Virus record (IMG/VR): IMGVR_UViG_3300013132_000041
Coordinates: 11,569 to 75,568 of that record
DNA from: a virus
Strand: one strand, 5' to 3'
DNA length: 64,000 bases
A program made the position numbers and the translations under genes. Of this stretch, positions 34,244 to 58,890 are shown piece after piece (within the stretch, counting starts at the first letter, position 1; each line of letters opens with the position of its first letter). A model generated the notes under the pieces. That model saw only the letters and a list, made by a program, of their open reading frames with translations. It was not told the DNA's origin and searched no databases.

Positions 34244-36093
34244 TGGCTAACCTTAGAATAGCAGAGCTTGATTTTGGCACTATAAAATCTAATCTTAAAA
34301 CTTTTCTAAAAGCACAGAACGAATTTTCGGATTATGATTTTGAGGGATCGGGATTATCTACTTTAATTGATTTATTGTCCTATAATACTCATTATAATGC
34401 ATATCTGGCAAACATGTTAGTAAATGAAATGTTTTTGGATAGTGCAGTAAAAAGGACGTCAGCTGTATCGATTGCAAAACATTTGGGTTATACTCCTAGA
34501 TCTGTACGAGGAGCTAGAGCAACTATAACTGTTCAAGTAAATAGCCCAACAGGATCTCCATCCAATGTTACAATGGATAGATATACGCCGTTTACTACTA
34601 CAGTTAACGGTACAAGTTTTACTTTTTTAAATACTGTTCCATATACTGTTACTCCATCTGGCGGCAATTATATTTTCACAGATATTGAGATAGTTGAGGG
34701 TCAAAACTTTGAATACAAATACACAGTAGCATCGCCAGGTCCTTCAGAAAAATTTGAAATACCTTCCGAAAACGTTGATACATCTACACTTAGAGTTTTA
34801 GTACAAAATTCATCTGCTGACACTATACAAACTGTGTATTCGTTATACAATGAATTATCAGCAGTCGAATCAGATTCTTTAGTGTATTATATTGAAGAAA
34901 ATGCTAACGGTAGATATCAAATTTATTTTGGTGATGATGTTTTAGGGAAAAAACTTATAGCAGGAAATATAGTAATTATTCAATATTTGGTTTCCAGTGG
35001 TTCAGATTGTAATGTATCTAGCTTGTTGCCTCAAACCTTCTCTCTATCCGGAACTATAGATGGTAATAGTAATGTCACTATAACTGTAGGAAGCAATTCT
35101 ACAGGTGGGGCTCCCAAAGAAACTATATCAGAAATAAAATTTAACGCGCCTAGGCAATATTTAAGTCAAAACAGAGCAGTGACATCTGATGATTATAAAA
35201 CTATAATACAAACTAATTATCCTTTAGCACAATCAATAGCAGTTTGGGGAGGGGAAGACAATGTGCCTCCTATATATGGTAAGGTTTTGATTTCACTTAA
35301 ACCTTATGCGGGTTATGTAATAAGTAATTTGACAAAAGAATCCATAAAAAATGATATTCTTGCATCTAAAAAAGCTATAGGTATACAAATAGATTTTGTG
35401 GAACCTCAATACTTTTATGTTAATTTAAATGTAACAGTAAATTACAATAGTAGAAATACTACATTATCTAATTCACAAATTAAAACTTTAGCTACTAATG
35501 CTATAACTAATTATTTCGCAAACAATCTTGAAAAATTTGATGCTGATTTTTATCTTTCTAAGCTATCGAAAGCTATAGATGATTCAAGTTCTGCTATAGT
35601 TGGCAGTCTTATAACTTTATCTTTACAGAAAAGAATTGAACCTACTCTTAATGTAAATAATTCTTTTTTAAGTAGTGATTCTATTAGATTTTTTCATAAA
35701 ATTAAACCATATGGTATTTCTTCCACACGATTTAATATAATAGTTGGGACAGAAACAACTGCAGTTACAATAACTGATACACCGAACGATACCCCTATTA
35801 ATGACAACGGTTTAGGTACTTTAATTTTAAAAAATGTATTGACGGGTTCTACTGTAAGCACAAATATAGGATCAATAAATTATGCTACAGGTGAAATTAC
35901 TATTACGTCTTTGTTGCCAATAGGTTATCCTTCAGGTCAAACAGATATAAGAATTAATGCCAGATTGCAAGAAGCTTCTTACAATCTAGTTGCCAATAGA
36001 GAACAAATTATAGTTTTAGACGATAGTACTTTAGATCCTCTTGCTAGCAGACAATCTGGTTTAACTGTAACTGCCTTAGATATAGCATTGTAA
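34243..36093 (+). CDS. gp6: Baseplate wedge subunit gp6
   Basis: ELDF..IK.NL, DYDFEGS, LSYNTHYN, QNRAVTSDDY, WGGEDN.PP.YGKV. Confidence 0.93.
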   Translation: MANLRIAELDFGTIKSNLKTFLKAQNEFSDYDFEGSGLSTLIDLLSYNTHYNAYLANMLVNEMFLDSAVKRTSAVSIAKHLGYTPRSVRGARATITVQVNSPTGSPSNVTMDRYTPFTTTVNGTSFTFLNTVPYTVTPSGGNYIFTDIEIVEGQNFEYKYTVASPGPSEKFEIPSENVDTSTLRVLVQNSSADTIQTVYSLYNELSAVESDSLVYYIEENANGRYQIYFGDDVLGKKLIAGNIVIIQYLVSSGSDCNVSSLLPQTFSLSGTIDGNSNVTITVGSNSTGGAPKETISEIKFNAPRQYLSQNRAVTSDDYKTIIQTNYPLAQSIAVWGGEDNVPPIYGKVLISLKPYAGYVISNLTKESIKNDILASKKAIGIQIDFVEPQYFYVNLNVTVNYNSRNTTLSNSQIKTLATNAITNYFANNLEKFDADFYLSKLSKAIDDSSSAIVGSLITLSLQKRIEPTLNVNNSFLSSDSIRFFHKIKPYGISSTRFNIIVGTETTAVTITDTPNDTPINDNGLGTLILKNVLTGSTVSTNIGSINYATGEITITSLLPIGYPSGQTDIRINARLQEASYNLVANREQIIVLDDSTLDPLASRQSGLTVTALDIAL

Positions 36094-38864
36094 TGCCAAC
36101 AACAAGAATAAAAGAAAAATTATCCACACTGGTATCAACTCAATTACCAGAACACATAACCTCAGACTATCCTACCTTTAGATTATTTTTAGAAAAATAT
36201 TATGAATTTTTAGAACAAGATCAAAATGCCCAAGAATTACTTCAGAATGCTAGATCATATGCCGATATTGATAGAACTATAGATTCCTTTGTTGATTATT
36301 TTATTGATTTGTATGCAAAAGGTATACCTAAAACTATATTATATGACAAAAGAGCATTTGTAAAACATGCCAGTGATCTGTATAAGCATAAAGGTACAGA
36401 AGATGCTTTTAGAATTTTATTTAGAATCTTGTTTAATGAAGAGATTGATTTTTTCTACCCAAATCAAGTTATATTAAAACCGTCAGATGGCAAATGGAAT
36501 AAAGATTACGTTCTAAGAGCTAGTGCTATTACCGGCAGTCCTTTTGATTTATCCGGAACACAAATCTCAGGCAATTTATCAAATGCTACAGCATTGGTGG
36601 AATCAGTTTTAAGTTTTGCTTCTGGGTCTGATACAATCTATGAAATTTATCTTAATTCTGATAGTGTTATTGGTAATTTTATAGGCGGCGAAAATATTAT
36701 TGGAAGAAAACTTACCAATATTAGCACCCTAGCCAGTTCTGTTATAACAGCAAATTTATATCCTATTGTATCAAAAATTGATATTGTAGATGGTGGTTTA
36801 GGATATGTTTTAAATCAATCTATTTCTATTGATAGTGCAAACGGCACCGGTGCTTCAGGTGTTGTAACAAGTGTTACTGATGCAGGCGCAATCAGAGAAA
36901 TACAATTATCAAGTTATGGCTACAAATATGATACAAAACCTAACGTAACGATTTCATCGCCTACTGCTACAGTAATTGGAACATATAAAATTGTCTCTAA
37001 TGTGGCAACTATAAGATTATCAAATAATCATAGTTTATTAGTAGGAAGTAATGCCAATGTTACTTTTACTGCAAACACTTTAAGTGACTTAAATGGTTCC
37101 ACTAAGACTTTAACAATATCATCTGTACCTAATTTAAAAACTGTAGTTATTTCTAATATAGCTCCTTTTAGAACCGGTGTAATAACTGCACAAAATGCTA
37201 ATACTAGTGGAAATGTTACTTTATCATATACCACTAATAAATTTCTGACGGGAAGATTTACTATATCAGATAATTTAGTAAGAACCACATTGGGTATAGA
37301 ACACGGTTTAAAAACTAATGACAACGTAAACGTTATTTTCAATAAAACAGATGTTGATTCATATACTGCAGATTTTAAATTAAAAAATTATAATAATGTT
37401 ACTGTTGGATTTTCTGAAACACATAATTTTGTGGTCAATGATAAAATAAATGTTACATTTGATTCTAACTATACTAATTCAACAATAGGCACATATGTAT
37501 TAAAAACATTACCAGGAGCGTCATCAAATACTGCTAATTTATATTTTAATACTGCCCCTCATTCGTTTTTGACAGGACAAAATGTAAATGTAAAATTTGG
37601 TTTAACAATAACTAATGCAGTATCAGGTACATTCTTAACTATTGCCAATGTAGGTATAGCATATCTTAATACCCCACATTCGTTTAAAGTTAACGATTCT
37701 ATTAATGTAAGTTTTACTAGCGCATTGTTGACTGATGATATAGATAAGACATTAATAAAGGGTAATGCAAATATAACACTAGGTAGTAATGCATTGGTCG
37801 GTAATGATACTACATTTTTATCTAATTTAACCGTAGGTAATGCTATAACTGTTAATTTGGGTAATTTGTATTATGTAGCTAACATAGCAAGTAATACATT
37901 AGTTTACTTAAGCTACAAAGCTAAATCAAGTGAAACATTTGCAAATGTTTATTTGGCTACTAGTAATCTTAATAGTAATTCCACTATTACTGCAGTAACA
38001 CTTGTACCCAACAGTAAAAGAATATTTTTTAGTATTGCTGATAAACCAAATACTTCAGGTGATATAGTTATATCTAATAATTTTACTAATAACTTAGTAA
38101 ATACTTTTATGACCGCTGTAGTTGTAGGAAACGGATATCCCATCTACAACTACATAGATGTAGCTTTACCGTCTGGATTTGCTAATGCTAATAGTAGAGG
38201 TGTTGTAACTGTAACTAATCAAGACGTAAGTAATATTATAGGAAATACTGCTTCACAGGTCACCGTTTTAGCAATCCCAAATAAAAAATCTATTGTTTTT
38301 GAATCTAATATATCATCGAATATAGTAGCGTCCAATGGAACAGTTATAGTTAATAGTGATTTGCCTGGGGATATAGAAGATTTTTCTAATGTTTTTTCTA
38401 TTTTATCTGCCCCAAATTTAAGAACAATAACGTTTGCATCATCTAATGCTAATACTAGAGGTAATGTAACAGTTTTTTATAGTAAAGCAGCAAATCTACA
38501 AGCAAATATAGGAGCTTTAGGAATAGGACCAGGCAGTTGGTTAGACGACTCTGGTAGATTAGATGAATCATTCAAGATACAAGGTAGAATAGGCACAGAT
38601 GAAAGGGTATATTATCAACCGTTTTCGTATGTTATAAAATCATCTCAACCACTTTCCGCTTGGAGAGAAGCAGTTAAAAAGTTATTACATCCTGCAGGAT
38701 TTGAGGTTTTTGGTGAGGTCGTATTAACCACAACTATTAACGAAGTTCAAAATGTGACTGCTCAAGCCAAATTTTTCCCAATAAAAATTGTTGGTAATGT
38801 TGATTCTAGTTCTACAACAGTATTAGCGGATACCTTAGAATATACCGCAGACAATCTAACTTAA
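36093..38864 (+). CDS. Baseplate wedge protein (gp7-like) with a long Asn-rich insertion
   Basis: FLEKYYEFLE, LYKHKGTE..FRILFRILF, PSDGKW, YYQPFSYVIKS, HPAGF; between gp6 and gp8. Confidence 0.75.
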   Translation: MPTTRIKEKLSTLVSTQLPEHITSDYPTFRLFLEKYYEFLEQDQNAQELLQNARSYADIDRTIDSFVDYFIDLYAKGIPKTILYDKRAFVKHASDLYKHKGTEDAFRILFRILFNEEIDFFYPNQVILKPSDGKWNKDYVLRASAITGSPFDLSGTQISGNLSNATALVESVLSFASGSDTIYEIYLNSDSVIGNFIGGENIIGRKLTNISTLASSVITANLYPIVSKIDIVDGGLGYVLNQSISIDSANGTGASGVVTSVTDAGAIREIQLSSYGYKYDTKPNVTISSPTATVIGTYKIVSNVATIRLSNNHSLLVGSNANVTFTANTLSDLNGSTKTLTISSVPNLKTVVISNIAPFRTGVITAQNANTSGNVTLSYTTNKFLTGRFTISDNLVRTTLGIEHGLKTNDNVNVIFNKTDVDSYTADFKLKNYNNVTVGFSETHNFVVNDKINVTFDSNYTNSTIGTYVLKTLPGASSNTANLYFNTAPHSFLTGQNVNVKFGLTITNAVSGTFLTIANVGIAYLNTPHSFKVNDSINVSFTSALLTDDIDKTLIKGNANITLGSNALVGNDTTFLSNLTVGNAITVNLGNLYYVANIASNTLVYLSYKAKSSETFANVYLATSNLNSNSTITAVTLVPNSKRIFFSIADKPNTSGDIVISNNFTNNLVNTFMTAVVVGNGYPIYNYIDVALPSGFANANSRGVVTVTNQDVSNIIGNTASQVTVLAIPNKKSIVFESNISSNIVASNGTVIVNSDLPGDIEDFSNVFSILSAPNLRTITFASSNANTRGNVTVFYSKAANLQANIGALGIGPGSWLDDSGRLDESFKIQGRIGTDERVYYQPFSYVIKSSQPLSAWREAVKKLLHPAGFEVFGEVVLTTTINEVQNVTAQAKFFPIKIVGNVDSSSTTVLADTLEYTADNLT

Positions 38865-38896: not shown

Positions 38897-40255
38897 ATGC
38901 CAGCAATAATTACTCAAAATCTAAGATTTCATAATTCTGAGCAGTTTTATGAAGCGTTTACTGAACCAGCTAACACTTTGATTTATGTGTTCATAGCTAA
39001 ATCTAGCCCATGGAACGATAATCTTGATACTGTTGGGGTAGTCGCTAATAGAGTCGATAGTCCAGAATTGACCTATAAGTTATATGATGAAATGATAGCA
39101 ATGAAACGTGTCTTATCTACGGATGTAGAATATGTTGTACCTCGATACGATTGGGTATCTGGTACTGTTTATAATTATTATGATCATACGTCTAATACTC
39201 TTTTTAATAATGAAATTACAACTAGAGTAGGAATAGCAGGGGCAGTACAACAAACTCTACAGCCTTTTTATGTTTTAGATACAACTACATTTAATGTTTA
39301 TAAGTGTTTAGCTAATAGTAAGGGAGCACCATCTACTGTAAGACCTGCAGGTTCCTCCGCTAATGTCATTACTATGGGTGACGGATATCAATGGAAGTAT
39401 ATGTACAATATTCCTGCAGGTAAAAGAAGTAGATTTTTGAATAGTGATTTTATGTATGTTACAGATAATAATTATTCTGCTAATATAGATGGTGCGTTGG
39501 ATATAGTTGTAGTTACTAATACTGGATCAGGGTATACAAGTGCGCCCAATGTTACTATTTCTGGGGATGGAGTTGGAGCTACAGCCAATGTAACCTTATC
39601 GGGAAATACTGTAGCTAATGTCAATATAGTATCCAGAGGTAGCGGATATAGATATGCAAATGTTTCTTTTTCTGGAGGTGGTGGTTCCAATGCCTCAGCT
39701 AGAGTAATTATTGGGCCGAAAGGTGGGCATGCCGCGAATGCAAGATTAGAATTAGGTGGATTCTTTTTAATTCTAGCCCCACAATTAATAAATGAGGAAA
39801 GTGGAATTTTTCCTGTTGATAATGACTTTAGAGTGCTAGGATTAATAAAGGATCCGCTTGAATATGGTACTATTACTGTAGCGTCGGGTAGTACTTATTC
39901 TTTGAGAAAAAATTTATATCTAGCTAATGTAACAGGCGCATTTTCTTTGGATGAATTTTTAGCAGGTAGTAATTCAAAAGCAAATGCTATAGTTACATCA
40001 ATCTCCGCAGATGCAGGAAATGCCAAAGCTAATGTGAAATATTATCAAGCATCTGGTGCTACCGCCAACGCAAATTCTTTTTCGGTTGGGGATACGGTAA
40101 CAGGGTTAAGTTCAGGTGCCGCTGGCAATTTATTGTCAATAACAAATGAAGATATTGAACCAGATTCGGGTCAAATTTTATATGTAGATTCTTTTAGACC
40201 TATACAAAGAGCTATAGATCAAACAGAAAGTTTACAATTAGTAATAGAATTTTAA
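38897..40255 (+). CDS. gp8: Baseplate wedge subunit gp8
   Basis: MPAIIT, VVPRYDW.SG, VYKCL.N, DGYQWKYMY, NDFR..GLI.DP, SGQILYVD...I.R..DQTE...VIEF. Confidence 0.9.
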   Translation: MPAIITQNLRFHNSEQFYEAFTEPANTLIYVFIAKSSPWNDNLDTVGVVANRVDSPELTYKLYDEMIAMKRVLSTDVEYVVPRYDWVSGTVYNYYDHTSNTLFNNEITTRVGIAGAVQQTLQPFYVLDTTTFNVYKCLANSKGAPSTVRPAGSSANVITMGDGYQWKYMYNIPAGKRSRFLNSDFMYVTDNNYSANIDGALDIVVVTNTGSGYTSAPNVTISGDGVGATANVTLSGNTVANVNIVSRGSGYRYANVSFSGGGGSNASARVIIGPKGGHAANARLELGGFFLILAPQLINEESGIFPVDNDFRVLGLIKDPLEYGTITVASGSTYSLRKNLYLANVTGAFSLDEFLAGSNSKANAIVTSISADAGNAKANVKYYQASGATANANSFSVGDTVTGLSSGAAGNLLSITNEDIEPDSGQILYVDSFRPIQRAIDQTESLQLVIEF

Positions 40256-40264: not shown

Positions 40265-43200
40265 ATGTACGTTAGTAGCCAAAGTCCTTTTTACGACGAT
40301 TTTAATGAATCCAAAAAGTTTTATAGAATCTTATTTCGTCCGGGTAGAGCAGTTCAAGCTAGAGAACTGACACAATTACAATCTATTTTACAAAAACAGA
40401 TTGAAAGATTTGGCTCTCATATCTTTAAAGAGGGATCAATTGTTATACCTGGTTCCCAATTTTATGAAACTAATTATAACTACGTAAAATTGCAGGCAAC
40501 GTATAATTCTATCGATGCTGATAATGTTATAGATGATTTGGTGGGAGAAATAATTGTAGGTCAAACTAACAACGTACGAGCAAGGGTAGTTAAAGTAATT
40601 ACGTCCGAAGGTATTGATCCTCCCACACTTTATGTAAAATATTTAAATTCAGGAACCAATGGTACTACTTATTTGTTTGAAGATAATGAAATTTTACAAC
40701 AAGATACCGTTGGATCACCTATAAATGTTAGAGCTATTTCTGCAAATGCTACAGGTATAGGGTCTGCTTTTAGTATTAAAAGCGGTGTAATATTTGTAAA
40801 AGGTATATTTGCATATTTTGAAGACTCAACGTTGGTAGTTAGCAAATACTCAAAACAAACTTCAGATAAAAGAATAGGATTTTTGATTACTGAGGAAGTA
40901 ATAGACGACCAAGATGATTCATCGTTACTTGATCCGGCAGTCGGAACAGCAAATTATTTTGCTCCAGGCGCAGAAAGATATAAATTAGATCTAACACTTG
41001 AAGCCAGAGGTATTTCTTTTGATTCCGCTGTTGATGATACTAACTTTATAGAATTGCTAAGATTACAAAATAATGAAATAGTTTTTCAAAAGCCTAAGGT
41101 TGAATATAATATTTTAGCTGACGAACTAGCTAGAAGAACATATGATGAGTCTGGAGATTATTCCGTAATTCCGCATAAAATAGATTTACTAGAACATCTT
41201 AGAACATCTAATAATAGATTAGACGGATACTTGACAGTTAGTCAAGGAGGCGATGATAGTAAGTATGTAGTAAAAGTCATGCCAGGAAAATCCTATATCA
41301 AAGGATATGAAATAGAAACTTTAACCAACAAATATATTGTTGGTAATAAAGCTAGAAATTTTGCTAACGTAAATTCTGGAACCGTATCTGTTGAAGTGGG
41401 AAATTATGTAAATATTACCGATGTGCATAGTTTGCCGGACGTATTGACTTTAAGTAAAGTAAATTTATATAATAAATTTGTGACAGGCAAAGGGGCGACC
41501 CCATCAAACGCAGTTCTTGTGGGTAATGCAAGAGTAAGGGCCTTTGAATATTCTTCGGGTACCGTGGCCAATAGTACAACCGGGGTTTATTCTTTGTATC
41601 TTTTTGATGTTAGTATGGTTACTGGGTATAAATTTGAAAATGATGTAAAATCTTTTTATTATGATAATTCAGGTTTTGAGGATTTTACAGCAAATATTGT
41701 TCCTACACGTGTATCTATAACAGGTTCTGCTACAACAACTAATAGTAGTAATGTTATAACAGGTTCAGGTACTCTTTTTAATTCGGAATTGGTTGCCAAC
41801 GCTTATGTTAGTATAGGAAATCAATTATTTCAAGTTGCAAGTATAAGTAATAATATTTCATTTTTTGCTACAACTAATGCTAATTCTAGTGTAACAGGCG
41901 AAACAATCTATATCAATAAAGCAACTATAAATTCCAATGATAAACAAAGTTATGTATTCGAAACACCATATAAGTACATAAAAACTATTGATCCTGATGA
42001 AACAGAAACAACTTATACTGCAAGAAGAATAGTTGATACTAACTTATCGAGCGGTAATATTACTCTAACTGCTAGAACTAATGAGACATTCTCACCATAT
42101 TCTGTAGATAATTATAAAATTTTAATTAAACAGTACGGTAGATATGAGGATTTAACAGGTAAAGTTACAAGAGGTGGAACTCCTACAGGTAGAACTTTAA
42201 CTATTCAATTAGGTGCTAATACAAATATTACAACAGATGCAGTGAGAATTTTTGCTACAGTTAATAAAACTAATTCTGCTGCATTGGAAAAGAATAAAAC
42301 TTTACAAACTAATTCTACAATAGATTATACAGATGCTAATACTGCAGCTGCTGCTATAGTATCATTAGGAAAAGCAGATGTATATAAATTGGTATCCGTT
42401 AGTATGTCAAGTACTGCATTTGGGACAAGTTATAGTTCAACTAATGCGACAGATATAACTAATAGATATTCATTTGATAACGGTCAAAGATTACAATTTT
42501 ACGATGTCGGTAGAATCACACTTAAACCAAATCAAGCTAAACCCACTGGTCCTATAAGAATAACTTTTGATTATTTTACTCATAGTACCACCGGCGATTA
42601 TTTTAGTGTTGACTCTTACACTGATATAGAATATAAAGATATACCTGCGGTAAATTTAAATGGAAAAACCTATAATCTAAGAGATTGCTTAGATTTTAGG
42701 CCTAGAATAGGTGACGATTCTACATTTTCTGCAACAAGCTCAGTTATAAACGAGTTTTTAGATCAAGAAACTGATTTTCAAACAGACTACCAATATTATT
42801 TACCTAAAACAGATAAATTGGTGTTGGATCGTTCCGGTAATATTTTTATAGTTTCAGGTATAAGTAGTAATAATCCAAAAGAGCCAAGTACACCTGAAAA
42901 TGCAATGGCATTGTACGTGTTCCGTCAATCCCCTTACGTAAGAAATGTAGAAATTGATGTCAATGTCACTGAGATTGATAATAGAAGATTTACAATGCGA
43001 GACATTGGTCGTATTGAATCTAGAGTTAAAAATTTAGAATATTACACGTCGTTAAATTTGCTAGAAACACAAACAGCAACGTTACAAATACAAGATTCTT
43101 TGGGCTTTGATAGATTTAAAAACGGTTTTGTTGTAGATAATTTTTCTGGGCATGGAATAGGAGATGTATCTAATCCCGATTATAAGGTGTCTATAGATTA

Positions 43201-44890
43201 CAATAAAAAAGAAATAAGACCTCTAGTTAATCAAATTTTCAAACCTTTATACGAGGTAAATTTATATTCTACGCCCGATACTATAACAAACAGAACAGCA
43301 AATAATTATTCTGTAGTAAACAAACTCATTTTGCCGAAATATACACACGAGGCGTTAGTTTCTAGCACAAGTGCAACTAGAACTGAATTTGTAAATCCTT
43401 TTAATATTACAACATTTAGAGGCATTTTGACTCTAAATCCTTCATCAGATTCTTGGCACGATGAATTATTGTTACCTATTCTTAATGAAAATAATAATGG
43501 TAATTATGATTCTTTGACTAGTATTTCTCAAATACAAAGAAAATACGAATCTATATATGGTAATTGGAGAGATATATGGTATGGTAATGAAAGAACCAGT
43601 GATAAAGATACAGGTGATGGGGCATTAAGAAAAACTTCTACAATTCGTACATCTGATCTTATTTTAAATAGTACCGGTAATAGATATGAGATTATGGAAA
43701 CCTTGGATACAACTGTTACTGATGAAAAAGTTATATCCAGAGTAGTTATACCATTGATGCGAGATAAGGAAATACATTTTACACTAAAAGGTATGAAACC
43801 CAATACAAAATTATATGCCTTTTTTGATGATATAAATGTTACTAATTTTACATGTATAAGTTATCAAAGAGCAAATGTAATTGCTACACTAACAGGTGAA
43901 ACTGCAGACGAGGTTATTAGAAATAGAAATCTAATTACTGATCAATATGGAGATTTAGAGGGCGTATTTAGTTATTCTGCTTCACAATTTAAAGTATCGG
44001 CAGGTAGTAAAAAATTAAGATTTAGTGATTCTGTTAATAATAGTACAGATCAAACTACATTTGCTGAGGCAGTATTTTCTTCTAATGGACAGTTAACATT
44101 TAAAGAGAAAATTATTTCTACTCAACCTGTGAATGTAAACACTGCTTCTTCCAATCCGAATACCTCAGGCACATACCCACCATCTACCGTGGGTCCGTTG
44201 GGATTTTCCTCAGTCACACCTGGCGGCGAGGTAATTAAACCTGTTACTAATTTTGGATTATTAGTTGCTGGAGGGCCGTCAATAGGCGCATATAATACAG
44301 AGAAAAATCAAGAAATTTTTGCAGATAAACTAGAGGAACAGGGATTCGTTGCTGCAGATATTGTAAATTTAACTTCGGATGTAGGTTTGGCGGGCGCATA
44401 CGATGCAGCTGATACTTTTCCAACAAGTACTAATCAATTCGATTATAAAGAATTTTTTGATGAAGCTTCAACAAGCACAGGTGCTATTAGTTCTGCTATT
44501 ACTTCTGCAGGTGCGTCTGGAGATAAAGTAATAGATCATTTCTCTGCAGCTTATGAAACAGCGAAATCTATGATAGGCGATGCAGCATATGCAGTATCAG
44601 CGTGGAATTGTGTGAGTGATGCGATTAAAAATAACCCCGGAGCAACTATTGATCAATTAGCAGATAAATATGGTTTTCCTGGTTGGAAGGGCAATCCTTT
44701 CGTAGAGGCCGTGTATTCTGTAGAAACTGATTCAGCTTTAAAAGCAGCCACAGGATTAAATGATCAATATCATGATACCGGAGATTATAAATTACATTTA
44801 AGTGCATCTTTAGTTGCAGGAAAAATGACTATGGGAACTATTCGTGCTCAAGATAATGATTTTATTTTGAATTCTATAAGTGGTAATTAG
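40265..44890 (+). CDS. Large virion structural protein (DUF4815/VrlC-like), N-terminal part
   Basis: PFYDDFNE.KKFYRILFRPGRAVQARELTQLQS, APGAERY, ARRTYDESGDY, DRFKNGFVVDNF. Confidence 0.8.
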   Translation: MYVSSQSPFYDDFNESKKFYRILFRPGRAVQARELTQLQSILQKQIERFGSHIFKEGSIVIPGSQFYETNYNYVKLQATYNSIDADNVIDDLVGEIIVGQTNNVRARVVKVITSEGIDPPTLYVKYLNSGTNGTTYLFEDNEILQQDTVGSPINVRAISANATGIGSAFSIKSGVIFVKGIFAYFEDSTLVVSKYSKQTSDKRIGFLITEEVIDDQDDSSLLDPAVGTANYFAPGAERYKLDLTLEARGISFDSAVDDTNFIELLRLQNNEIVFQKPKVEYNILADELARRTYDESGDYSVIPHKIDLLEHLRTSNNRLDGYLTVSQGGDDSKYVVKVMPGKSYIKGYEIETLTNKYIVGNKARNFANVNSGTVSVEVGNYVNITDVHSLPDVLTLSKVNLYNKFVTGKGATPSNAVLVGNARVRAFEYSSGTVANSTTGVYSLYLFDVSMVTGYKFENDVKSFYYDNSGFEDFTANIVPTRVSITGSATTTNSSNVITGSGTLFNSELVANAYVSIGNQLFQVASISNNISFFATTNANSSVTGETIYINKATINSNDKQSYVFETPYKYIKTIDPDETETTYTARRIVDTNLSSGNITLTARTNETFSPYSVDNYKILIKQYGRYEDLTGKVTRGGTPTGRTLTIQLGANTNITTDAVRIFATVNKTNSAALEKNKTLQTNSTIDYTDANTAAAAIVSLGKADVYKLVSVSMSSTAFGTSYSSTNATDITNRYSFDNGQRLQFYDVGRITLKPNQAKPTGPIRITFDYFTHSTTGDYFSVDSYTDIEYKDIPAVNLNGKTYNLRDCLDFRPRIGDDSTFSATSSVINEFLDQETDFQTDYQYYLPKTDKLVLDRSGNIFIVSGISSNNPKEPSTPENAMALYVFRQSPYVRNVEIDVNVTEIDNRRFTMRDIGRIESRVKNLEYYTSLNLLETQTATLQIQDSLGFDRFKNGFVVDNFSGHGIGDVSNPDYKVSIDYNKKEIRPLVNQIFKPLYEVNLYSTPDTITNRTANNYSVVNKLILPKYTHEALVSSTSATRTEFVNPFNITTFRGILTLNPSSDSWHDELLLPILNENNNGNYDSLTSISQIQRKYESIYGNWRDIWYGNERTSDKDTGDGALRKTSTIRTSDLILNSTGNRYEIMETLDTTVTDEKVISRVVIPLMRDKEIHFTLKGMKPNTKLYAFFDDINVTNFTCISYQRANVIATLTGETADEVIRNRNLITDQYGDLEGVFSYSASQFKVSAGSKKLRFSDSVNNSTDQTTFAEAVFSSNGQLTFKEKIISTQPVNVNTASSNPNTSGTYPPSTVGPLGFSSVTPGGEVIKPVTNFGLLVAGGPSIGAYNTEKNQEIFADKLEEQGFVAADIVNLTSDVGLAGAYDAADTFPTSTNQFDYKEFFDEASTSTGAISSAITSAGASGDKVIDHFSAAYETAKSMIGDAAYAVSAWNCVSDAIKNNPGATIDQLADKYGFPGWKGNPFVEAVYSVETDSALKAATGLNDQYHDTGDYKLHLSASLVAGKMTMGTIRAQDNDFILNSISGN

Positions 44891-44907
44891 TATAGACAAG
44901 GACAGCA

Positions 44908-46970: not shown

Positions 46971-49286
46971 ATGTCCATTTTTAATAGTAACACTGTATCA
47001 AATGTAAATGTAGGTTTCGCTGCAAACGACGGAACAGGCGATCCCTTACGAACTGCCTTTGAAAAAATAAACAATAACTTTTTTGATGTTTATGTGTTTT
47101 TAGGTAACGGAACACACTTAGGTAATGTTACTCAAATCAATATTCTTGGTGGAAATTTAGTAGGTGTAGCTAATGTTTCCACTTCTAATACTGTATATAC
47201 TGGTAATCTTAGTACTCCTACTATTTTTCATAATTCCGGCACAATAGACATAAAAAATAATCTCAATGTTACAGGTGATTTGGATGTAGATGGAGGAGAT
47301 TTAACTTTTAGTGCATCTACTATAAACATAGCAGGAACTCCAACAACAATAAGAATTGGAGCATCAGCAAGCACCGTTAATGTGGGATCTACTTCCGGCA
47401 CAACAACTGTTAGAAACGATTTAAGAGTATTATCTGATTTGAATGCTCTAGGTAATGTGGCAGCAGGAAATGTAAGTACAGACAGAGGAGTGTTCACATT
47501 TATAACAGGTGACCATGATACCGGCACACTAAGAAATGCAGTAGTAGTAGAAAAATCACCTTATGTTAATGTTACTCTTTCTGGCAACATTACTGGTACT
47601 GCTAACGTATTACTAAGCAATTTAGCTGGGAATATTTTAAATATTACGGCAAATCTTGAAAATACAGGAGTTACCCCTACCACTTATGGTAATTCTAGAA
47701 TAGTATCTAGAATTACAGTGGACGCAAAGGGAAGAATAACATCTGCAGCAAATGTAGCTTTAGGTGATATCGTTCTTGGAACAGAAACTTCGGGGCCATA
47801 TGTAGCTAATTTAACTTTCGGTAATGGTATTGCTATATTTAATTTAGCAGATGAAAGTGCTACTCCTAACATTAGATTAACTACAACAGGAGTTACCCCT
47901 ACCACTTATGGTAATTCCAGACAAATACCTAGTATAGTTGTGGATGGTCAAGGTAGATTGACCTCGGCTAGTAATATATCTTTAGGTGATATCGTTCTTG
48001 GAACAGAAACTGCCGGAGCATTTGTAGGTAATGTCTTAGGTGGTACTGGTGTAAGTATCACTGGGCAAGGCGGAGAGTATGCTAACATTGTTGTAAATAT
48101 TGGGCAAGCTGTTAATACTACAGCAAATGTGAATTTCAATAATGTTACTGTCCAAGATCGCGTAAATGCTGCAACAGGACTATTTACTGGTAATGTCACA
48201 GTAGGAAACATAATAGTATCAGGCACAACAACTACAGCCGGGACACAAATTATTACCGGTAATATTACAGTACAAAATTTAATAGCAGAAGGTGCGCCCC
48301 AAACCGGAGGATCTGTTGTACAAAGTGTACAAGGTAGATTCAGTAGCAATGTAACCACCGGAAACGTTAGTGGTACTAGAGGCAATTTTACTAGAATAAA
48401 TGGTATTTTTGATTCGGGTAGTATTAGTTCTACAGTTACATTTCCAAATACCGGTGTTAATGCTGCTAACTATGGCAATAATTCTCATCATGTAGGTTTA
48501 GTAATAGATAGCACAGGTAGAATTACTTCTGCTAATATGATTCCTTTTGCGGCAGGTCCTACTGGTCCACAGGGAGCACAAGGATTTCAAGGAGCTACGG
48601 GCCCGCAGGGTGCAACAGGTGCCCAAGGTGCAGCAGGGGTTCAAGGAGCTACGGGCCCGCAGGGTGCAACAGGTGCCCAAGGTGCAGCAGGGGTTCAAGG
48701 AGCAACAGGTACTGCCGGCGCACAAGGTCCAGCAGGGGTCCAAGGAGCAGCAGGTGCCCAAGGAGCAACAGGTACTGCCGGCGCACAAGGTGCAGCAGGG
48801 GTTCAAGGAGCTACGGGGCCGCAGGGTGCAACAGGTGTACAAGGTGCAACAGGTGTACAAGGTGCAGCAGGTGTCCAAGGTGCCCAAGGATTTCAAGGCG
48901 CTACTGGTCCACAAGGATTAAATTCCTCTGTAAACTTTTTTGCATCGAACGTTACTGCCAATGTAAATTTATTTACTGCTAATCTTATAGTTTCTAATGC
49001 AATAACTGAAGGTGTAGTAACTATATCTCATAATACGTTGACAGCAAATAATGGCACCATTTTAACTAGGCACTTAACAGGAACAACAACTTTTACAGAT
49101 GGATTATTAAGCGGGCAATCACTTACTTTACTTTTGTATGGTGGAAATACTTATTCGGTGACTTGGCCAACAACAACTTGGATAAGTACTTCAGGTAGTG
49201 TAGCGCCTACATTACAATCAAAACACGGTTTAGTATTCTTCAAACAAAGTTCTAACTTATTTGGTGTTTCTTTAGGATATTTTTAA
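46971..49286 (+). CDS. Baseplate-attached fibre with gp9/gp10-like N-terminal motif and collagen segment
   Basis: [21 protein letters not shown]; duplicated [12 protein letters not shown] module; Gly-X-Y run. Confidence 0.8.
48555..48918 (+). repeat. Collagen-like Gly-X-Y repeat
   Basis: [18 protein letters not shown]... triplets with internal DNA duplications. Confidence 0.95.
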
Positions 49287-50446: not shown

Positions 50447-50447
50447 A

Positions 50448-51711: not shown

Positions 51712-52295
51712 TTATTATTAAAAAAAATTCTATTTTTATAGATATACCATCCTGTTAAAATTAATTTTTCGTCTTCAGTTGCAGGATAACCTCTGTGCAC
51801 GTGTGTGAAATCTGCAGGCCAAATTAAAGTTAACCCTTTTTTTGGTTTTATTTTTAAATTATAATATAAAAATTCTGTTTCACCTCCGTTTTCTATATCA
51901 TTAAGATATGTTAGAAATACAGCTTTTCTAAACATTTTTCCGTTTTCGGGAGGTCCTTGTTCCGGATGCCAATTTTTATAATTTTTTCCTGGTAAATAAT
52001 GTTGAAAATTAAATGGTGTACTTGGCCTAATGTAGTTATCACCATTATATAAAATATATTTGTAGTTTTTTGCATATTGTAAAAACAGACCATCAAGAAA
52101 ATGAAGATACTCTTGTACCAATAAGGTAGGTAATTTTTCAGAAGATATCATAGTATATCCTCTTTCCTCCCCGTTAGGTTTAAAATCTTTTCTTTTAGAT
52201 TTAAATTCATTTAAAAAAGATTCAACTATCTCATCATCTAGAAAAGTACTACCTATAAAAGTTTCTTCGCCCCGCATTCCTTGTACCGGCGTCAT
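51708..52295 (-). CDS. 2OG-Fe(II) oxygenase
   Basis: WHPE, YLNDIENGGETEF, WPADFTHVHRG, K.ILTGW. Confidence 0.88.
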   Translation of the reverse strand: MTPVQGMRGEETFIGSTFLDDEIVESFLNEFKSKRKDFKPNGEERGYTMISSEKLPTLLVQEYLHFLDGLFLQYAKNYKYILYNGDNYIRPSTPFNFQHYLPGKNYKNWHPEQGPPENGKMFRKAVFLTYLNDIENGGETEFLYYNLKIKPKKGLTLIWPADFTHVHRGYPATEDEKLILTGWYIYKNRIFFNNN

Positions 52296-54289: not shown

Positions 54290-54326
54290 AATTTATTAGA
54301 TATATATAATTTTATTTTGGCCTTAT

Positions 54327-56030
54327 ATGATAAAAAAATGTAAAATTGTCTTGATGACTATGTTCAAAAATGAATCTAAAAATTTGAAAAGAATGTTAGA
54401 TTCTACTATAGGATTCGTTGATTATTACATTTTTCAAAACAATGGCTCAAATGATGGTTCTGAAATTATTGCAAATAATTTCTTAAAAGAAAATAACTAT
54501 TTGGGGCATGTGTATTTTTTAGAAGAAGGATGGATAAGCTTTGGTTGGAATAGAGATCATTTGCTACAGCATGTTCAAAATAGTAACCATGATTGCAATT
54601 GGATTTTAAATATAGATTGTGATGAAATCCTACAGATAGACACTAATTTCAATTGGGATATTTTTAATAATTTAGATATTCATAGTTTTGAGGTTACTGC
54701 AGATTTCAATGGTAACTTATATCAGCGTGCTAGAATTTATAATTCTAGATTTTTTTGGAAATTTAATCATGATCTAGCACACGAAACAATTTATATGAGC
54801 GAACCTAATTTAGGTGAAAATTTTGATAGGTATATACTAGATCCTGGGTTTAGACAGATAGGATACCCAGAAGGACAAAGTTGGCAAAATCCACATAAAT
54901 TTCTATTTGATGCACTTTGTTTTGAACAAAAACTTATAGAAGAAAATACTTTACTTACAGATATGTATCATTTTTGGTACATAGGCAAAAGTTATTTTGA
55001 TTGTTTTAGAAGCCATTATCCTTTAGGAAAAAAACAACAAGAAGAATATGCAAAACGTTGTATATTTTATTTTAAAGAATATCTTAACATAGTACATGAT
55101 TTTGAAACAGATTATACTGCAAAATTTATAGATGAAAAATCTTATTTTACTATGGTTTGTATAGCTGAAGTTTATTATTTCTTAGAAAATTTTGAAGAAA
55201 ATATATGTACGTTAGAAAAAGCAGAACAATTTTGTCCAGAAAGAAACGATCATCTTATAGCATTGGCTGAAACTTATCAAAATTTAAAAGATTTTAGTAA
55301 TATGTTAAAGATAACATCTAAATTAACATTGTCTGAAAGAAGAAATCCATATCCCAAATTTAACTTCATTATTAATAAAAATCATTATTATGATACTGGT
55401 ACGTATGTAAAAGAATTACATAATAAAGCTTTAGAGAATATGAAAGATAATAAAATGTATATATCTGCTCTTAACAAAGATTACAAGAAAAGAATATTCG
55501 TAGTAGATGATTTTTACACTGATCCGTATAAAATTAGAGAATATGCTTTAGGTGTAGAATACTCTCCAGATATTAGATATTATAAAGGATCTAGGTCTAC
55601 CCAACAACACATTTTCCAAGGAACTAAAGAAATATTCGAATCAATTATTGGTGAAAAAATACAACGTTTTCATGAACATGGTATGTGTGGTAGATTTCAA
55701 ATTTGTACTTCAGAAGATCCTATAGTATACCATAATGATGATCAAAAATGGGCTGCTATGATTTACTTATCTCCAGACGCTCCTTTCAGTACAGGTACAA
55801 AGCTTTTAGCAAACAAATTTTCTAAAGCAAGATCTGCTGAAGATGAAGGATACATTAATGCCTTTGATGGTGGATTTTTTGATAGCACAAAATTTGAGAT
55901 AGTAGATAATATAGGAAATGTATTTAACAGGTTAATTATTTTTAACTCTAAATGTATACATGCAGCATCTCAATATTTTGGGCAAGATAAAAATTCTGGT
56001 AGATTAACACATTTATTTTTCTTTGATTAA
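54327..56030 (+). CDS. Glycosyltransferase + TPR-like region + C-terminal 2OG oxygenase-like domain
   Basis: MFKNES..L.R.L.S, FGWNR, IDCDE, HE; C-terminal VVDDFY.DP, HND, YLSP, NVFNRL, H, RLT. Confidence 0.75.
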   Translation: MIKKCKIVLMTMFKNESKNLKRMLDSTIGFVDYYIFQNNGSNDGSEIIANNFLKENNYLGHVYFLEEGWISFGWNRDHLLQHVQNSNHDCNWILNIDCDEILQIDTNFNWDIFNNLDIHSFEVTADFNGNLYQRARIYNSRFFWKFNHDLAHETIYMSEPNLGENFDRYILDPGFRQIGYPEGQSWQNPHKFLFDALCFEQKLIEENTLLTDMYHFWYIGKSYFDCFRSHYPLGKKQQEEYAKRCIFYFKEYLNIVHDFETDYTAKFIDEKSYFTMVCIAEVYYFLENFEENICTLEKAEQFCPERNDHLIALAETYQNLKDFSNMLKITSKLTLSERRNPYPKFNFIINKNHYYDTGTYVKELHNKALENMKDNKMYISALNKDYKKRIFVVDDFYTDPYKIREYALGVEYSPDIRYYKGSRSTQQHIFQGTKEIFESIIGEKIQRFHEHGMCGRFQICTSEDPIVYHNDDQKWAAMIYLSPDAPFSTGTKLLANKFSKARSAEDEGYINAFDGGFFDSTKFEIVDNIGNVFNRLIIFNSKCIHAASQYFGQDKNSGRLTHLFFFD

Positions 56031-56031
56031 T

Positions 56032-57288
56032 ATGAAATTTAGTTTAATTACACCCACACATAGTTTTAAAAATCTACCTTTTCTTTTAGAACTTTATGCA
56101 AGTATAAAAGACCAAACATATACTGATTGGGAGTGGATTCTAATATTAAATGGTGAGTTGCAACCATACGATATACCTAATTTTTTATACGAAAATACTA
56201 AAGTAAAAGTATATAAAATTGAGAATAATAAAAATATAGGTTTTTTAAAAAATCAAGCAGGTAAGTTTGCTACAGGTGATGTGATTGTAGAAGTGGATCA
56301 CGACGACTTAATTACTTTTGATTGTTTGGATGAATTGCATAAAGCTTATCAAGATAAAGATATAGGTTTTGTTTTTAGTAATGATGCAATTTACCAAGCT
56401 AATGGAGAATTTATTCCTTACAATCCAGCATATGGTTGGAAATATAAAAAAGTAAATTGGGGAAACAAAGAGTTGTTTGTCATGGATTCGTTCGAACCTA
56501 CTAGTCATAGTTTGTCATTTATATGGTATTCCCCAGATCATGTAAGATCTTGGAAAAAAGAAGTTTATGATAGTCTAGGCGGATTCAACCCAGAGATGAA
56601 TGTTTGTGAAGATCATGAACTAATGGTTAGAACCTATTTAAAAACTAGATTTAAAAAAATTGAAAAACCTTTATATATCTATAGAGTAACAGGTGATAAT
56701 ACATCTATCAATCATAGAAATGCTGAAATTCAAATTAAAACTAAAGAAATTTTTAATGATTATGCGTATGATTTAGCAGAAAGAGATGCTAAACTTAATA
56801 ATTTGAAAATGGTAGATTTGGGAGGAGGCATAAATGCCAGGCCCGGTTATATAACTATAGACATAGCTGATGCAGACATCGTGCATGATTTGAATAAAGG
56901 CATCCCTTTACCTGATAATAGTGTGGGTGTACTAAATGCTAGTCACATATTAGAACATCTTAAAGATCCTATTAAATCTATGAGCGAAATTTATAGAGTA
57001 CTAGTGCATGGAGGTTGGGCATTTATTGAAGTGCCAAGCACTGACGGAAGAGGAGCATTCCAGGATCCCACACATATTAGTTTTTGGAACGAAAATAGTT
57101 TTATGTATTATACAGATAAAAATCTTGCTAAGTATATTAGAAACGATAAGATTAGATTTTGTGTTTATAGGTGTGAAACTTTTTTCCCCAACGAATGGAT
57201 GAAAAGTATAAATAGTTGTGTTACTGTAGCTTGGTTATATGCTATTAAAAATAATGAAATACGTTTACCTGGATTATGGAACATATGA
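56032..57288 (+). CDS. GT2 glycosyltransferase fused to SAM methyltransferase
   Basis: FSLITPTH, QTY.DWEW, EVDHDD, EDHEL; VDLGGG, ASHILEHL, EIYRVL..GG, DPTH. Confidence 0.85.
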   Translation: MKFSLITPTHSFKNLPFLLELYASIKDQTYTDWEWILILNGELQPYDIPNFLYENTKVKVYKIENNKNIGFLKNQAGKFATGDVIVEVDHDDLITFDCLDELHKAYQDKDIGFVFSNDAIYQANGEFIPYNPAYGWKYKKVNWGNKELFVMDSFEPTSHSLSFIWYSPDHVRSWKKEVYDSLGGFNPEMNVCEDHELMVRTYLKTRFKKIEKPLYIYRVTGDNTSINHRNAEIQIKTKEIFNDYAYDLAERDAKLNNLKMVDLGGGINARPGYITIDIADADIVHDLNKGIPLPDNSVGVLNASHILEHLKDPIKSMSEIYRVLVHGGWAFIEVPSTDGRGAFQDPTHISFWNENSFMYYTDKNLAKYIRNDKIRFCVYRCETFFPNEWMKSINSCVTVAWLYAIKNNEIRLPGLWNI

Positions 57289-57887
57289 AATATAGTATTC
57301 CACCGTATGCTAATAAAAATGAGGGTTTAGTTTATGTTGAATGGAAAAATGCTTTTTCCGAAAATGATATTTTATCAATCATTTCTATAGGCGAATCATT
57401 ACCCTTTAATGAAGCTGGGATAGTAAATGATAAGGATTCAACCATTTTAAATTTAAATGCAAGGCGTTCTAAAACGTCTTGGATAAATTTAAACAATGAG
57501 ACCGAGTGGTTATACGAAAAAATAGCATATATGGTTAGAGAAGTCAATGCTGATTTTTATAGATTTGATATAGACGGGTTGTATGAATCATTACAATATA
57601 CTATTTACGAATCCGAAAAACAAAGTTATTATAATTGGCATACGGACATAGGAGTATATGGATCCAGATCTATAACTAGAAAAATTTCAATGAGTCTGTT
57701 ATTATCAGATCCTTATGACTTTGAGGGAGGCGATTTAGAAATTTGGGGGTCCAATAATACAACTGCGACCAAAGAAAAAGGATGCCCTATATTTTTTCCA
57801 TCATATAATCTTCATAGAGTGACTCCTGTAACTAGGGGTATACGTAAATCGTTAGTAGTTTGGATAGGTGGTCCAGCATTTAAATAG
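57285..57887 (+). CDS. 2OG-Fe(II) oxygenase (PKHD/P4Hc-like)
   Basis: LQYTIY, YNWHTD, RKISMS.LLSDP.DFEGGDL, FPSY..HRVTPVT.G.RKSLV.W..GP.FK. Confidence 0.9.
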   Translation: MKYSIPPYANKNEGLVYVEWKNAFSENDILSIISIGESLPFNEAGIVNDKDSTILNLNARRSKTSWINLNNETEWLYEKIAYMVREVNADFYRFDIDGLYESLQYTIYESEKQSYYNWHTDIGVYGSRSITRKISMSLLLSDPYDFEGGDLEIWGSNNTTATKEKGCPIFFPSYNLHRVTPVTRGIRKSLVVWIGGPAFK

Positions 57888-57902
57888 CCAAAATAGTATC
57901 CT

Positions 57903-57910
57903 TATAAATA
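57903..57910 (+). promoter_or_regulatory. T4-type late promoter TATAAATA
   Basis: Exact consensus upstream of the structural gene at 57929. Confidence 0.75.
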
Positions 57911-57928
57911 TTACTATAGGGGGAAATT

Positions 57929-58264
57929 ATGGCTGTTACATCTAATCTAGTAATAGATCAAGGTTCTGATTTTAGTATAGTCATTCGTTATTTGGATGAT
58001 GATGGAACCGCAATTGATCTAACAGGATTTCAAGCACGCTCTAAAATGCGCAGATCGTATTATTCTGCGAATGCAACTACTTTTGGCGCAGATATATCAG
58101 ACCCAGCTAACGGTAATGTTACATTAACCTTAAATTCTAATACTACTGCTAATTTAAAAGCAGGCAGATACGTTTATGATGTGGAAGTAGTAGCTAATGC
58201 TACTTATACTGTTACTAGAATAGTAGAAGGCACCATAACTGTAATGCCTGAGGTAACTAAATGA
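57929..58264 (+). CDS. Small virion structural protein
   Basis: NLVIDQGSDF, DLTGF, GRYVYDVE, RIVEG...V.PEVT; late promoter. Confidence 0.7.
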   Translation: MAVTSNLVIDQGSDFSIVIRYLDDDGTAIDLTGFQARSKMRRSYYSANATTFGADISDPANGNVTLTLNSNTTANLKAGRYVYDVEVVANATYTVTRIVEGTITVMPEVTK

Positions 58265-58890
58265 CAGTAATACTAGCTACTAAGCAAAAAAATGCACAAT
58301 TAGTAATTAATAAAGGCGGTGTTGCAGGACCAGCTGGTCCTGCAGGGCCCACTGGTCCTCAAGGTGCTACAGGAGCTGTAGGATCCACAGGTCCACAGGG
58401 TCCACAGGGAGCACAGGGGGCCACAGGTATAGGTGCCCAGGGTCCTCAAAGTTCTTCAGGTATATCACCTAGCACCGGAGTTGTTGCTGGTACGTATGGT
58501 GGAGCTAGTAATGTAGCAGTAATTACAGTTGCAGCAAATGGTTTGATATTTTTCGCAGGCAATGCCGCAGTAGCAGGTGTTAGTAATTTTCAAGCTTCTG
58601 GAAATACATTTACAATTACAACTAGTTCTGGAGCTAGTTTTTTAGCAAATATTCAACCAAATTCTGTAAGATTATCTACAGATACATCTGGGCCTTACGT
58701 TGCAAATTTGGTAGCAGGAACAGGGGTCTCCTTACTTAATTTAGGGGATGAGGGCACAACGCCAACCATAGCAATAGGGCAAGATGTAGGTACATCTAAT
58801 AGTGTAGTATTTGCTAATATAACTTCCAATTACAATGTTACTGTGAACGCTAATTTATCTTTTAATTTGGTAGATGCCGGAGAATATTAA
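58261..58890 (+). CDS. Short collagen-containing fibre/whisker-like protein
   Basis: GPAGPAGPTGPQ run plus modules shared with the other fibres; next to neck genes. Confidence 0.7.
   Translation: MTVILATKQKNAQLVINKGGVAGPAGPAGPTGPQGATGAVGSTGPQGPQGAQGATGIGAQGPQSSSGISPSTGVVAGTYGGASNVAVITVAANGLIFFAGNAAVAGVSNFQASGNTFTITTSSGASFLANIQPNSVRLSTDTSGPYVANLVAGTGVSLLNLGDEGTTPTIAIGQDVGTSNSVVFANITSNYNVTVNANLSFNLVDAGEY

Follow-up and report, generated by a model that had tools for sequence, protein, structure and literature searches.

The one close precedent for N-glycosylation of non-canonical asparagines by a virus's own enzymes comes from chloroviruses. Their N-glycans are carried at sites other than N-x-S/T (NTXT, NIPG, NVAT, NLTA and others) and depend on virus-encoded soluble glycosyltransferases (GTs); in PBCV-1 the glycan-building enzymes include A064R, a GT+methyltransferase protein (PMC9614988, PMC5408694). 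Here we describe a recurrent Asn motif, [A/S/G]-N (hereafter [ASG]N), in fibre and baseplate proteins of a phage represented by a 75.6-kb IMG/VR viral contig (IMGVR_UViG_3300013132_000041, estimated to be 48% complete), together with the GT and 2-oxoglutarate (2OG) oxygenase genes encoded nearby. The stretch analysed, called the window throughout, comprises 64,000 nucleotides (bases 11569-75568 of the contig, about 32% GC). A sequence-only reading had taken the motif for the acceptor site of a phage-encoded modification of the virion surface. Like PBCV-1, the window encodes several soluble GTs, including GT-methyltransferase fusions (at 6274 and 56023). Unlike PBCV-1, a giant virus of eukaryotes whose capsid-protein glycans were demonstrated by structure and mass spectrometry, it offers genes alone and its host is presumably bacterial. 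No homology of its enzymes to the PBCV-1 GTs was tested or found, and its GT pair is common elsewhere without the motif.

In mycobacteriophages, work attributed to Freeman et al. (2023; cited in PMC12801897) reportedly found O-glycosylation of the virion by phage GTs at Ser/Thr-rich C-terminal extensions of capsid and tail-tube proteins. Phage-encoded GTs are present in the window as well, and in mycobacteriophages they modify virion structural proteins; by contrast, the proteins concerned here are those of the baseplate and fibres, and Thr/Ser is replaced by Asn. Glycosylation of collagen-like proteins is a further point of comparison, BclA of Bacillus anthracis being an O-glycosylated collagen-like protein. 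The GT-2OG fusion, GT25 and P4H-like oxygenases beside collagen-like fibres in the window are reminiscent of mimivirus L230 and of the animal LH3 and GT25 collagen galactosyltransferases. Shared with such collagen-modifying systems are a predicted 2OG-like domain fused to a GT, a GT25 and P4H-like 2OG oxygenases, and the adjoining G-X-Y fibre genes. Unlike in those systems, the G-X-Y runs of the window lack Lys and have Pro at X, and the comparison would explain the enzymes but not the [ASG]N motif. The host-recognition cluster of pelagimyophages and cyanomyophages is described, in passages of Zaragoza-Solas et al. (2020, PMC7029224), as hypervariable and as combining tail-fibre genes with GTs and lipopolysaccharide (LPS)-type enzymes; the GTs are interpreted there as modifiers of the host O-chain. 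The passages of that paper retrieved by term search describe neither an Asn motif in virion proteins nor a link to collagen-like genes.

The source of the window is a marine T4-like myophage, and its closest annotated relatives are the pelagimyophages Mosig and HTVC008M. Its VrlC shares approximately 36% amino-acid identity with those of Mosig and HTVC008M and its gp8 40% with Mosig gp8, while a megablast search of the region against phage records returned zero matches. A T4-type late module was recognised by Pfam, consisting of gp53, a split gp5, gp25, gp6, a gp7-like protein, gp8, VrlC/DUF4815, collagen-like fibres (46971, 58261), the neck proteins gp13/14, and gp15, gp16 and gp17. The baseplate wedge is of T4 type: gp7, gp8, gp53, gp6 and gp25 each matched over the Pfam cut-off, and gene order and fold agree. 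The gp7, gp8 and gp53 matches (PF23786, PF09215 and PF11246), the gene order and the gp7 fold are shared with T4. Unlike the window proteins, T4 gp7, gp8 and gp53 have no [ASG]N excess.

[ASG]N dipeptides were counted in each protein and compared with composition-preserving shuffles of the same protein, the excess being expressed as z. The excess was largest in the giant fibre (166 against 98 expected, z 8.8), followed by the gp7-like protein (45 against 22, z 5.9), a 111-amino-acid (aa) protein (7 against 1.8, z 4.4), the 771-aa collagen-like fibre (41 against 25, z 3.9), gp8 (20 against 11, z 3.4) and gp53 (5 against 1.6, z 3.1). A 209-aa collagen-like fibre protein reached z 2.0. When the enriched set was pooled with the giant fibre excluded, [ASG]N was found 155 times against 82 (z 10) and [ASG]N[VIL] 76 times against 19 (z 13). 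No excess was found in the remaining structural proteins (pooled, 118 against 114), in enzymes and replication proteins (77 against 84), or in the neck proteins and any of the enzymes of the window taken singly. The motif is thus real, and only some of the outer virion proteins have it in excess; as set out below, it is also clade-specific and conserved.

These counts bear on several statements of the sequence-only reading. The enrichment it described survived the comparison with shuffles in a subset of virion proteins, and its impression that the motif is scarcer outside surface proteins was confirmed by the enzymes, replication proteins and neck proteins. Its examples were found as quoted, gp8 containing a stretch with ANVT, GNT, ANVN and ANVS and the 111-aa protein at 57929 having seven of its eight Asn after A, S or G. 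Its list of motif-rich proteins was correct for the fibres, the gp7-like protein, gp8 and the small structural proteins. It did not hold for the VrlC-like proteins (z 1.1, and 1.4 for the 616-aa protein); gp6 (z 0.8) and the gp5-like protein (z -0.8) had no excess either.

In the 11.5 kb upstream of the window (G000:C1:654-8789) there are three successive gene pairs, in each of which an Asn-rich beta protein of 112-119 aa is paired with a glycine-rich protein of 550-620 aa (55% A+S+G). The beta proteins had z values of 3.1 (118 aa), 2.6 (119 aa) and 1.8 (112 aa), and their glycine-rich partners had no excess.

In the gp7-like protein and gp8 taken together, AN was the strongest non-trivial outlier among the 400 dipeptides (29 against 10.3, z 6.3) and NV came second, while NG, NN and NP were depleted. 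The preferred context is a small residue at -1 (Ala more often than Ser or Gly), V, L or I at +1 and a hydrophobic residue at +3. The sequence-only reading had also tied the motif to N-x-T/S. This did not stand, since S or T occurs at +2 of 18 of the 65 motif Asn in these two proteins (28%) and of 17 of the 69 other Asn (25%), with a combined S+T frequency of 0.19. Asn-Gly was scarce in the enriched virion proteins (12 against 27 expected) and in the giant fibre (13 against 41.5), whereas the enzymes were not depleted (35 against 27). This depletion fits an avoidance of fast-deamidating Asn in extracellular proteins.

Repeats account for part of the signal in the fibres. In the giant fibre, [GAS]N occurs three times in each unit of a 35-aa tandem repeat, producing a peak in motif spacing at 35 (z 12), and the fibres share modules detectable by BLAST. 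Because of this repeat and these modules, motif counts in fibres are not independent events, even after masking. A k-mer redundancy mask (6/10 identities) over-masked non-repetitive proteins and was dropped in favour of a BLAST-based mask. With the latter, z was 6.2 for the gp7-like protein, 3.5 for gp8, 5.1 for the 771-aa fibre and 6.4 for the giant fibre, and no internal repeats were detectable in the gp7-like protein or gp8.

Base composition was rejected as a cause. The enriched proteins of the window contain 8-14% Asn, but among 80 related IMG/VR loci found through gp8, equally AT-rich relatives (GC 0.30-0.32) with 9-10% Asn lacked the excess, and only 4 of the 451 open reading frames (ORFs) of at least 250 aa in these loci exceeded z 3. 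A hexamer at the DNA level was likewise rejected: codon usage at the motif varies, GCT being just slightly preferred to GCA ahead of Asn, and since several codons encode it the motif is a pattern at the amino-acid level. Nor is it a general trait of T4-like fibres. No [ASG]N excess was found in the fibres and baseplate of T4, where gp7 had the highest value (z 2.6; gp8 -0.2, gp53 0.1), or in the Mosig homologues of the gp7-like protein (z -0.6) and gp8 (z 0.1). The [AS]-N-[LV] pattern is reminiscent of pentapeptide-repeat proteins, yet neither the Pentapeptide nor the Hexapep families of Pfam matched any protein of the window.

The gp8 homologues (n=120) included a close clade of at least 50% identity (clade A) and a clade of 431-aa proteins (clade B). 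Mean [ASG]N z was 2.8 in clade A, where most sites were fixed in position, and 2.8 in clade B as well, where the sites lay partly elsewhere. Homologues outside both clades had a z of about 0 for [ASG]N and of about +2 for [ASG][ST]. The latter enrichment was lost in clade A (z about 0) at aligned columns. In the remaining homologues the clade-A motif columns are occupied by Thr, Ser, Gly or Ala, with A, S or G already in the column before them in about half of the cases. Since other lineages have [ASG][ST] at the aligned columns where clade A has [ASG]N, the alignment shows that Asn has taken the place of Thr/Ser within an older small-polar-hydrophobic context. The expectation that the AN sites of gp8 would prove lineage-specific was borne out, and in clade A they are conserved in position. 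In most of the related phages (L005-L084), gp8 and VrlC had an excess of [A/S/G]-[S/T] as well (z about 1.5-4), and it seems that baseplate proteins of this kind have the small-polar-hydrophobic context in general.

A comparable pattern was found for the gp7-like protein. All 18 of its full-length homologues, down to 43% identity, had z values of 3.4-6.3, and 100 other homologues averaged -0.37. A sister phage on a 115-kb contig, with a gp7-like protein 66% identical to that of the window, has the same set of enriched proteins (gp53 z 3.0). When the gp7-like protein and gp8 were compared with those of the sister phage, 60 of 65 motif Asn were retained, against 48 of 69 other Asn (p 0.0009) and 41 of 65 [ASG][TS]. 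As the motif Asn are better conserved than other Asn, this comparison shows the motif to be held, probably by purifying selection. The excess recurs in other lineages, in segments that do not align with those of the window and therefore look convergent.

In the sister phage (G017), the sheath-, tube- and portal-sized ORFs are followed downstream by one for a 432-aa protein (L183:6064-7362, equivalent to 66064-67362) that also has the excess, with 14 [ASG]N against 7 (z 3.1-3.4). This protein may be the major capsid protein. T4 gp23, in contrast to the 432-aa protein, had a z of -1.9.

AlphaFold2 models of gp8 (predicted local-distance difference test score, pLDDT, 88) and of the gp7-like protein (pLDDT 73.5) were both rich in beta-sandwiches, and the best meaningful Foldseek match of the latter was T4 gp7 (5iv5_BJ, probability 1.00). 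Motif Asn were located at strand entries, in mid-strand and in loops, distributed much like other Asn of these proteins. An Asn ladder in a beta-solenoid had been named as a finding that would undermine the sequence-only reading. For the gp7-like protein and gp8 it was rejected, given the beta-sandwich models, the spread of the Asn and the lack of a solenoid among the Foldseek matches. In the fibres motif spacing is periodic, with a period of 6 in the giant fibre and 5 in the 771-aa fibre. A 471-aa protein (L200:9606-11021, minus strand) adjoining the gp7-like gene of another contig, G021, contains heptad-like "AN..[FY].." repeats (36 [ASG]N against 22), the dipeptide excess lying in a coiled-coil-looking rather than a beta context.

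The enzymes of the window, identified by Pfam, include a GT2+Methyltransf_24 protein at 6274, a sulfotransferase at 8482, an APS-kinase-like fusion at 9512, a carbamoyltransferase at 16215, a P4H-like 2OG oxygenase at 17872, a GT25 at 18435, a GT2-DUF6445 protein at 54327, a GT2+Methyltransf_11 protein at 56023 and a 2OG oxygenase at 57276. The inventory of two methyltransferase domains, a sulfotransferase, a carbamoyltransferase and seven 2OG-like domains given in the sequence-only reading was correct, two of the seven being DUF6445 domains with an HxD...H pattern. Its count of at least six GT domains was right for the four over the Pfam cut-off (three GT2 and one GT25), the other two being sub-threshold hints (GT-A-like at 5636, GT9-like at 7573). 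The placing of enzyme islands after fibre genes was also accurate, as those at 5636-10348 and 51708-57887 both follow fibres. Pfam predicted GT2-DUF6445 as a single protein, whose sequence has an HND motif and a distal His; sequence searches of the PDB with it and with the DUF6445 proteins returned nothing meaningful. No STT3/PglB or GT41 (HMW1C-like N-glycosyltransferase, NGT) homologue was found by Pfam in the approximately 65 ORFs of this 48% complete contig.

The proposed co-occurrence of enzymes and motif was not supported when related contigs were compared. In IMG/VR, at least 245 relatives of the GT2-methyltransferase protein were found (56-69% identity). In approximately 90 viral contigs with the same GT2-DUF6445 and GT2-methyltransferase pair, nearby fibre-like ORFs had a mean [ASG]N z of -0.18 and a mean [ASG][ST] z of +1.5. 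Conversely, a GT2+methyltransferase homologue was found in none of 35 gp8-related contigs, which are mostly fragments, so that its absence is weak evidence; no GT2 (PF00535) over the cut-off was found in 16, and then 17, related contigs, and essentially no enzyme homologues within 10 kb of gp8 in the 80 related loci. Mosig has a comparably rich sugar-enzyme island and no motif excess. In clade B phages the excess is moderate and consistent across the gp7-like protein, gp8 and VrlC, though absent from gp6, and no GT2 over the cut-off was found in them.

Seven GT-pair contigs also held a gp8 homologue. Among contigs with the pair, enriched proteins were found in G021 (gp7-like z 4.4, 1955-aa fibre z 8.1), G023 (gp8 z 3.6, VrlC z 3.5) and G018 (a 925-aa ORF with z 5.6 and a 289-aa ORF with z 3.7, its own gp7-like protein and gp8 not being enriched). 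G032 had a single N-rich ORF of 362 aa (z 5.9). No enriched protein was found in G031 and G020/G030, nor in G019 and G022, which have the pair and no gp8 match. The link between the enzymes and the motif is thus weak.

Collagen-like fibre genes are far more tightly associated with the enzyme module. In at least 245 viral stretches the gene order is conserved as collagen-like fibre, GT2-DUF6445, GT2-methyltransferase, P4H-like 2OG oxygenase, a 245-aa protein and neck genes; in the window this synteny spans 46971-58890 (compared loci L085-L178). G-X-Y runs of at least six triplets were found in 48 of 94 GT-pair loci, in 26 of the 31 loci with both flanks, and in none of 154 control loci of similar total length. 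On the strand of the first GT, the run usually ends 0.4-2.4 kb upstream of it. Both enzyme islands of the window follow fibres that contain collagen-like sequence. This synteny suggests a fibre-modifying module. The G-X-Y runs have Ala, Pro or Val at X and Gln, Thr or Ala at Y, and they lack Lys; the targets of the classical chemistry, which yields hydroxylysine or 4-hydroxyproline, are thus absent, and that chemistry does not fit the runs as such. Since the module co-occurs far more tightly with G-X-Y genes, the collagen-like fibres are the better candidate substrate, and the enzymes more probably act on them or on host glycans than on the motif Asn.

The motif was probably selected. The sequence-only reading had proposed that it was selected into structural proteins as an acceptor; selection on these Asn is plausible, as they are conserved and lineage-specific, but the acceptor role is unlikely and the link to the enzymes is unsupported. 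The explanation we prefer, to which we give about an even chance, is that the motif serves an unmodified surface chemistry based on hydrogen-bonding Asn that resist deamidation through a bulky +1 residue and the avoidance of Asn-Gly. Asn was substituted for Thr/Ser, sometimes Gly or Ala, at small-Thr/Ser-hydrophobic positions of gp8, and the resulting pattern has then been kept, probably by purifying selection. Amides of solvent-facing Asn, at strand entries and loops of beta-sandwiches and on fibre shafts, may form hydrogen bonds with host surface glycans or with other subunits. The rate of Asn deamidation depends on sequence context, and we suggest for this reason that the bulky +1 residue and the scarcity of Asn-Gly would slow the deamidation of these Asn in particles that persist for long outside cells. 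The neighbouring GT, 2OG oxygenase and methyltransferase genes would most likely act on another substrate, either the collagen-like G-X-Y region of the fibres or host envelope glycans.

Several points weigh against this surface-chemistry explanation. The solvent-facing position of the Asn is deduced from the alternation with a hydrophobic +1 residue, the models having given secondary structure only. Asn has a low beta-sheet propensity, and a change from Thr to Asn in strands calls for a positive reason. A single linear context found both at strand entries and loops and in fibre repeats and a heptad-like AN repeat would resemble the recognition site of an enzyme. Of six GT-pair contigs whose sequence was entirely or largely scanned, three also held strongly enriched proteins, compared with 3 of the 80 control loci (nominal p 0.004, uncorrected for phylogeny, from small numbers of fragmentary contigs).

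The last two points belong to the explanation in which [A/S/G]-N-[V/I/L] is the acceptor of a cytoplasmic Asn modification encoded by the phage, either N-glycosylation or hydroxylation followed by glycosylation. The GT, methyltransferase, sulfotransferase and carbamoyltransferase genes would then build and decorate a glycan that coats the fibres and outer baseplate. Such a sequon would agree with the selective conservation and lineage specificity of the motif Asn, with a linear context that recurs across structural settings and non-homologous segments, and with the soluble GTs, GT-methyltransferase fusions and GT-2OG fusion that lie within the late structural module; chloroviruses set a precedent for N-glycans outside N-x-S/T (PMC9614988, PMC5408694), and the nominal association of the GT pair with strongly enriched proteins (3/6 against 3/80) points the same way. 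We nevertheless consider it unlikely. Pfam detected no STT3/PglB or GT41 NGT homologue, N-x-S/T is uncoupled from the motif Asn, the fibre-like ORFs of the approximately 90 GT-pair contigs have a mean z of -0.18, and G031, G020/G030, G019 and G022 have no enriched protein. The Mosig island occurs without the motif, while clade B has the excess without a GT2 over the cut-off. The VrlC-like proteins are large and peripheral yet not enriched, and collagen-like genes are a much tighter partner of the enzymes. The literature contained no report that we could find of an N-glycosylated phage virion. The case of phage virion glycosylation known to us, that of mycobacteriophages, is O-linked, which also counts against a sequon. 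The particular claim that a tailed phage with a marine bacterial host uses soluble enzymes it encodes to modify Asn at [A/S/G]-N-[V/I/L], outside N-x-S/T, in its fibres and outer baseplate, by direct N-glycosylation or through hydroxylation and subsequent glycosylation by the GT-2OG fusion, is in our judgement quite unlikely. If true, this Asn modification would be the bacterial-virus counterpart of chlorovirus N-glycosylation.

Selection is dispensed with altogether if the motif is a neutral by-product of repeat amplification, exchange of fibre modules and AT-driven Asn-rich usage, that is, a dipeptide without function. The three motif copies in the 35-aa repeat of the giant fibre, the modules common to the fibres, the 32% GC of the genome and the 8-14% Asn of the enriched proteins would be in keeping with this. 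It is made improbable by the gp7-like protein and gp8, which are free of internal repeats and still reach z 6.2 and 3.5, by the nature of the gp8 sites, which are point substitutions within a conserved scaffold, by relatives that are equally AT-rich and Asn-rich without the excess, and by the better conservation of motif Asn than of other Asn. Moreover, the preceding amino acid cannot sway mutation at the second position of the next codon, and the motif codons are mixed. A structural role is also conceivable, in which the motif marks a repeated slot such as the Asn ladder or turn of a beta-solenoid or triple beta-helix. The short-period spacing in the fibres (6 and 5), the hydrophobic residues at +1 and +3 and the N-terminus of an N-rich 355-aa fibre in G023, which looks like a regular beta repeat, are suggestive of such a slot. 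This would be relevant only to fibres, as the gp7-like protein and gp8 are predicted multi-domain beta-sandwiches with dispersed motif Asn and no solenoid match in Foldseek, and homologues of the same fold have Thr/Ser at the motif positions; we regard it as very unlikely.

Marine T4-like phages have many GT and 2OG-oxygenase genes without assigned targets, and the window provides two testable leads. A clade-specific, conserved Asn pattern on receptor-facing parts of the virion would be an unusual adaptation of surface chemistry or, under the less likely alternative and if that is true, the first Asn-linked modification site in a phage. The GT-2OG-methyltransferase module, which hundreds of viral contigs have in tight synteny with collagen-like fibre genes, points to modification of fibres instead of, or besides, the usually assumed modification of host LPS. 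Either lead bears on host recognition and on the persistence of these abundant phages in sea water. The features concerned are listed in Table 1.

Table 1. Features of the window, with position, strand and basis or remark
Giant fibre, 2565 aa, 3' part	1..5226	+	gene start 2471 bases before the window
Parts of the giant fibre: 35-aa tandem repeats, collagen-like G-X-Y run, C-terminal NNFFG/NTTG repeats, Peptidase_S74 chaperone domain	1..5226	+	
Enzyme island 1, directly after the giant fibre: GT-A-like (weak), GT2+methyltransferase, GT9-like (weak), sulfotransferase, APS-kinase-like fusion	5636..10348	+	Pfam
Carbamoyltransferase, P4H-like 2OG oxygenase (PF13640), GT25 glycosyltransferase	16215..19133	+	Pfam
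gp53 baseplate wedge protein, motif-enriched	28300..28794	+	Pfam, shuffles
gp7-like baseplate wedge protein; central all-beta region lineage-specific	36093..38864	+	Pfam, shuffles
gp8 baseplate wedge protein, motif-enriched	38897..40255	+	Pfam, shuffles
VrlC-like (DUF4815) protein and 616-aa protein, not enriched	40265..46758	+	
771-aa fibre with 41-triplet collagen-like run, motif-enriched	46971..49286	+	
Four 2OG-oxygenase-like genes: PF13640, PF13759, DUF6445, PF13759	51708..54289	-	Pfam
GT2-DUF6445 fusion, GT2-methyltransferase fusion, P4H-like 2OG oxygenase	54327..57887	+	Pfam
111-aa LtfC-like beta-sandwich protein and 209-aa collagen-like fibre protein	57929..58890	+	

Some further features of the window were recorded. 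Genes for IscA- and NifU-like Fe-S assembly proteins follow enzyme island 1 (10373-11080), and a TnsA-like endonuclease gene lies within the baseplate module (26588-27046). Between its collagen-like run and its Peptidase_S74 domain, the giant fibre has approximately 25 copies of a 16-17-aa Cys-containing repeat (NNFFG ... NTTG; residues ~2000-2430). This repeat contains many N-T-T sequons, in which the Asn is mostly not preceded by A, S or G.

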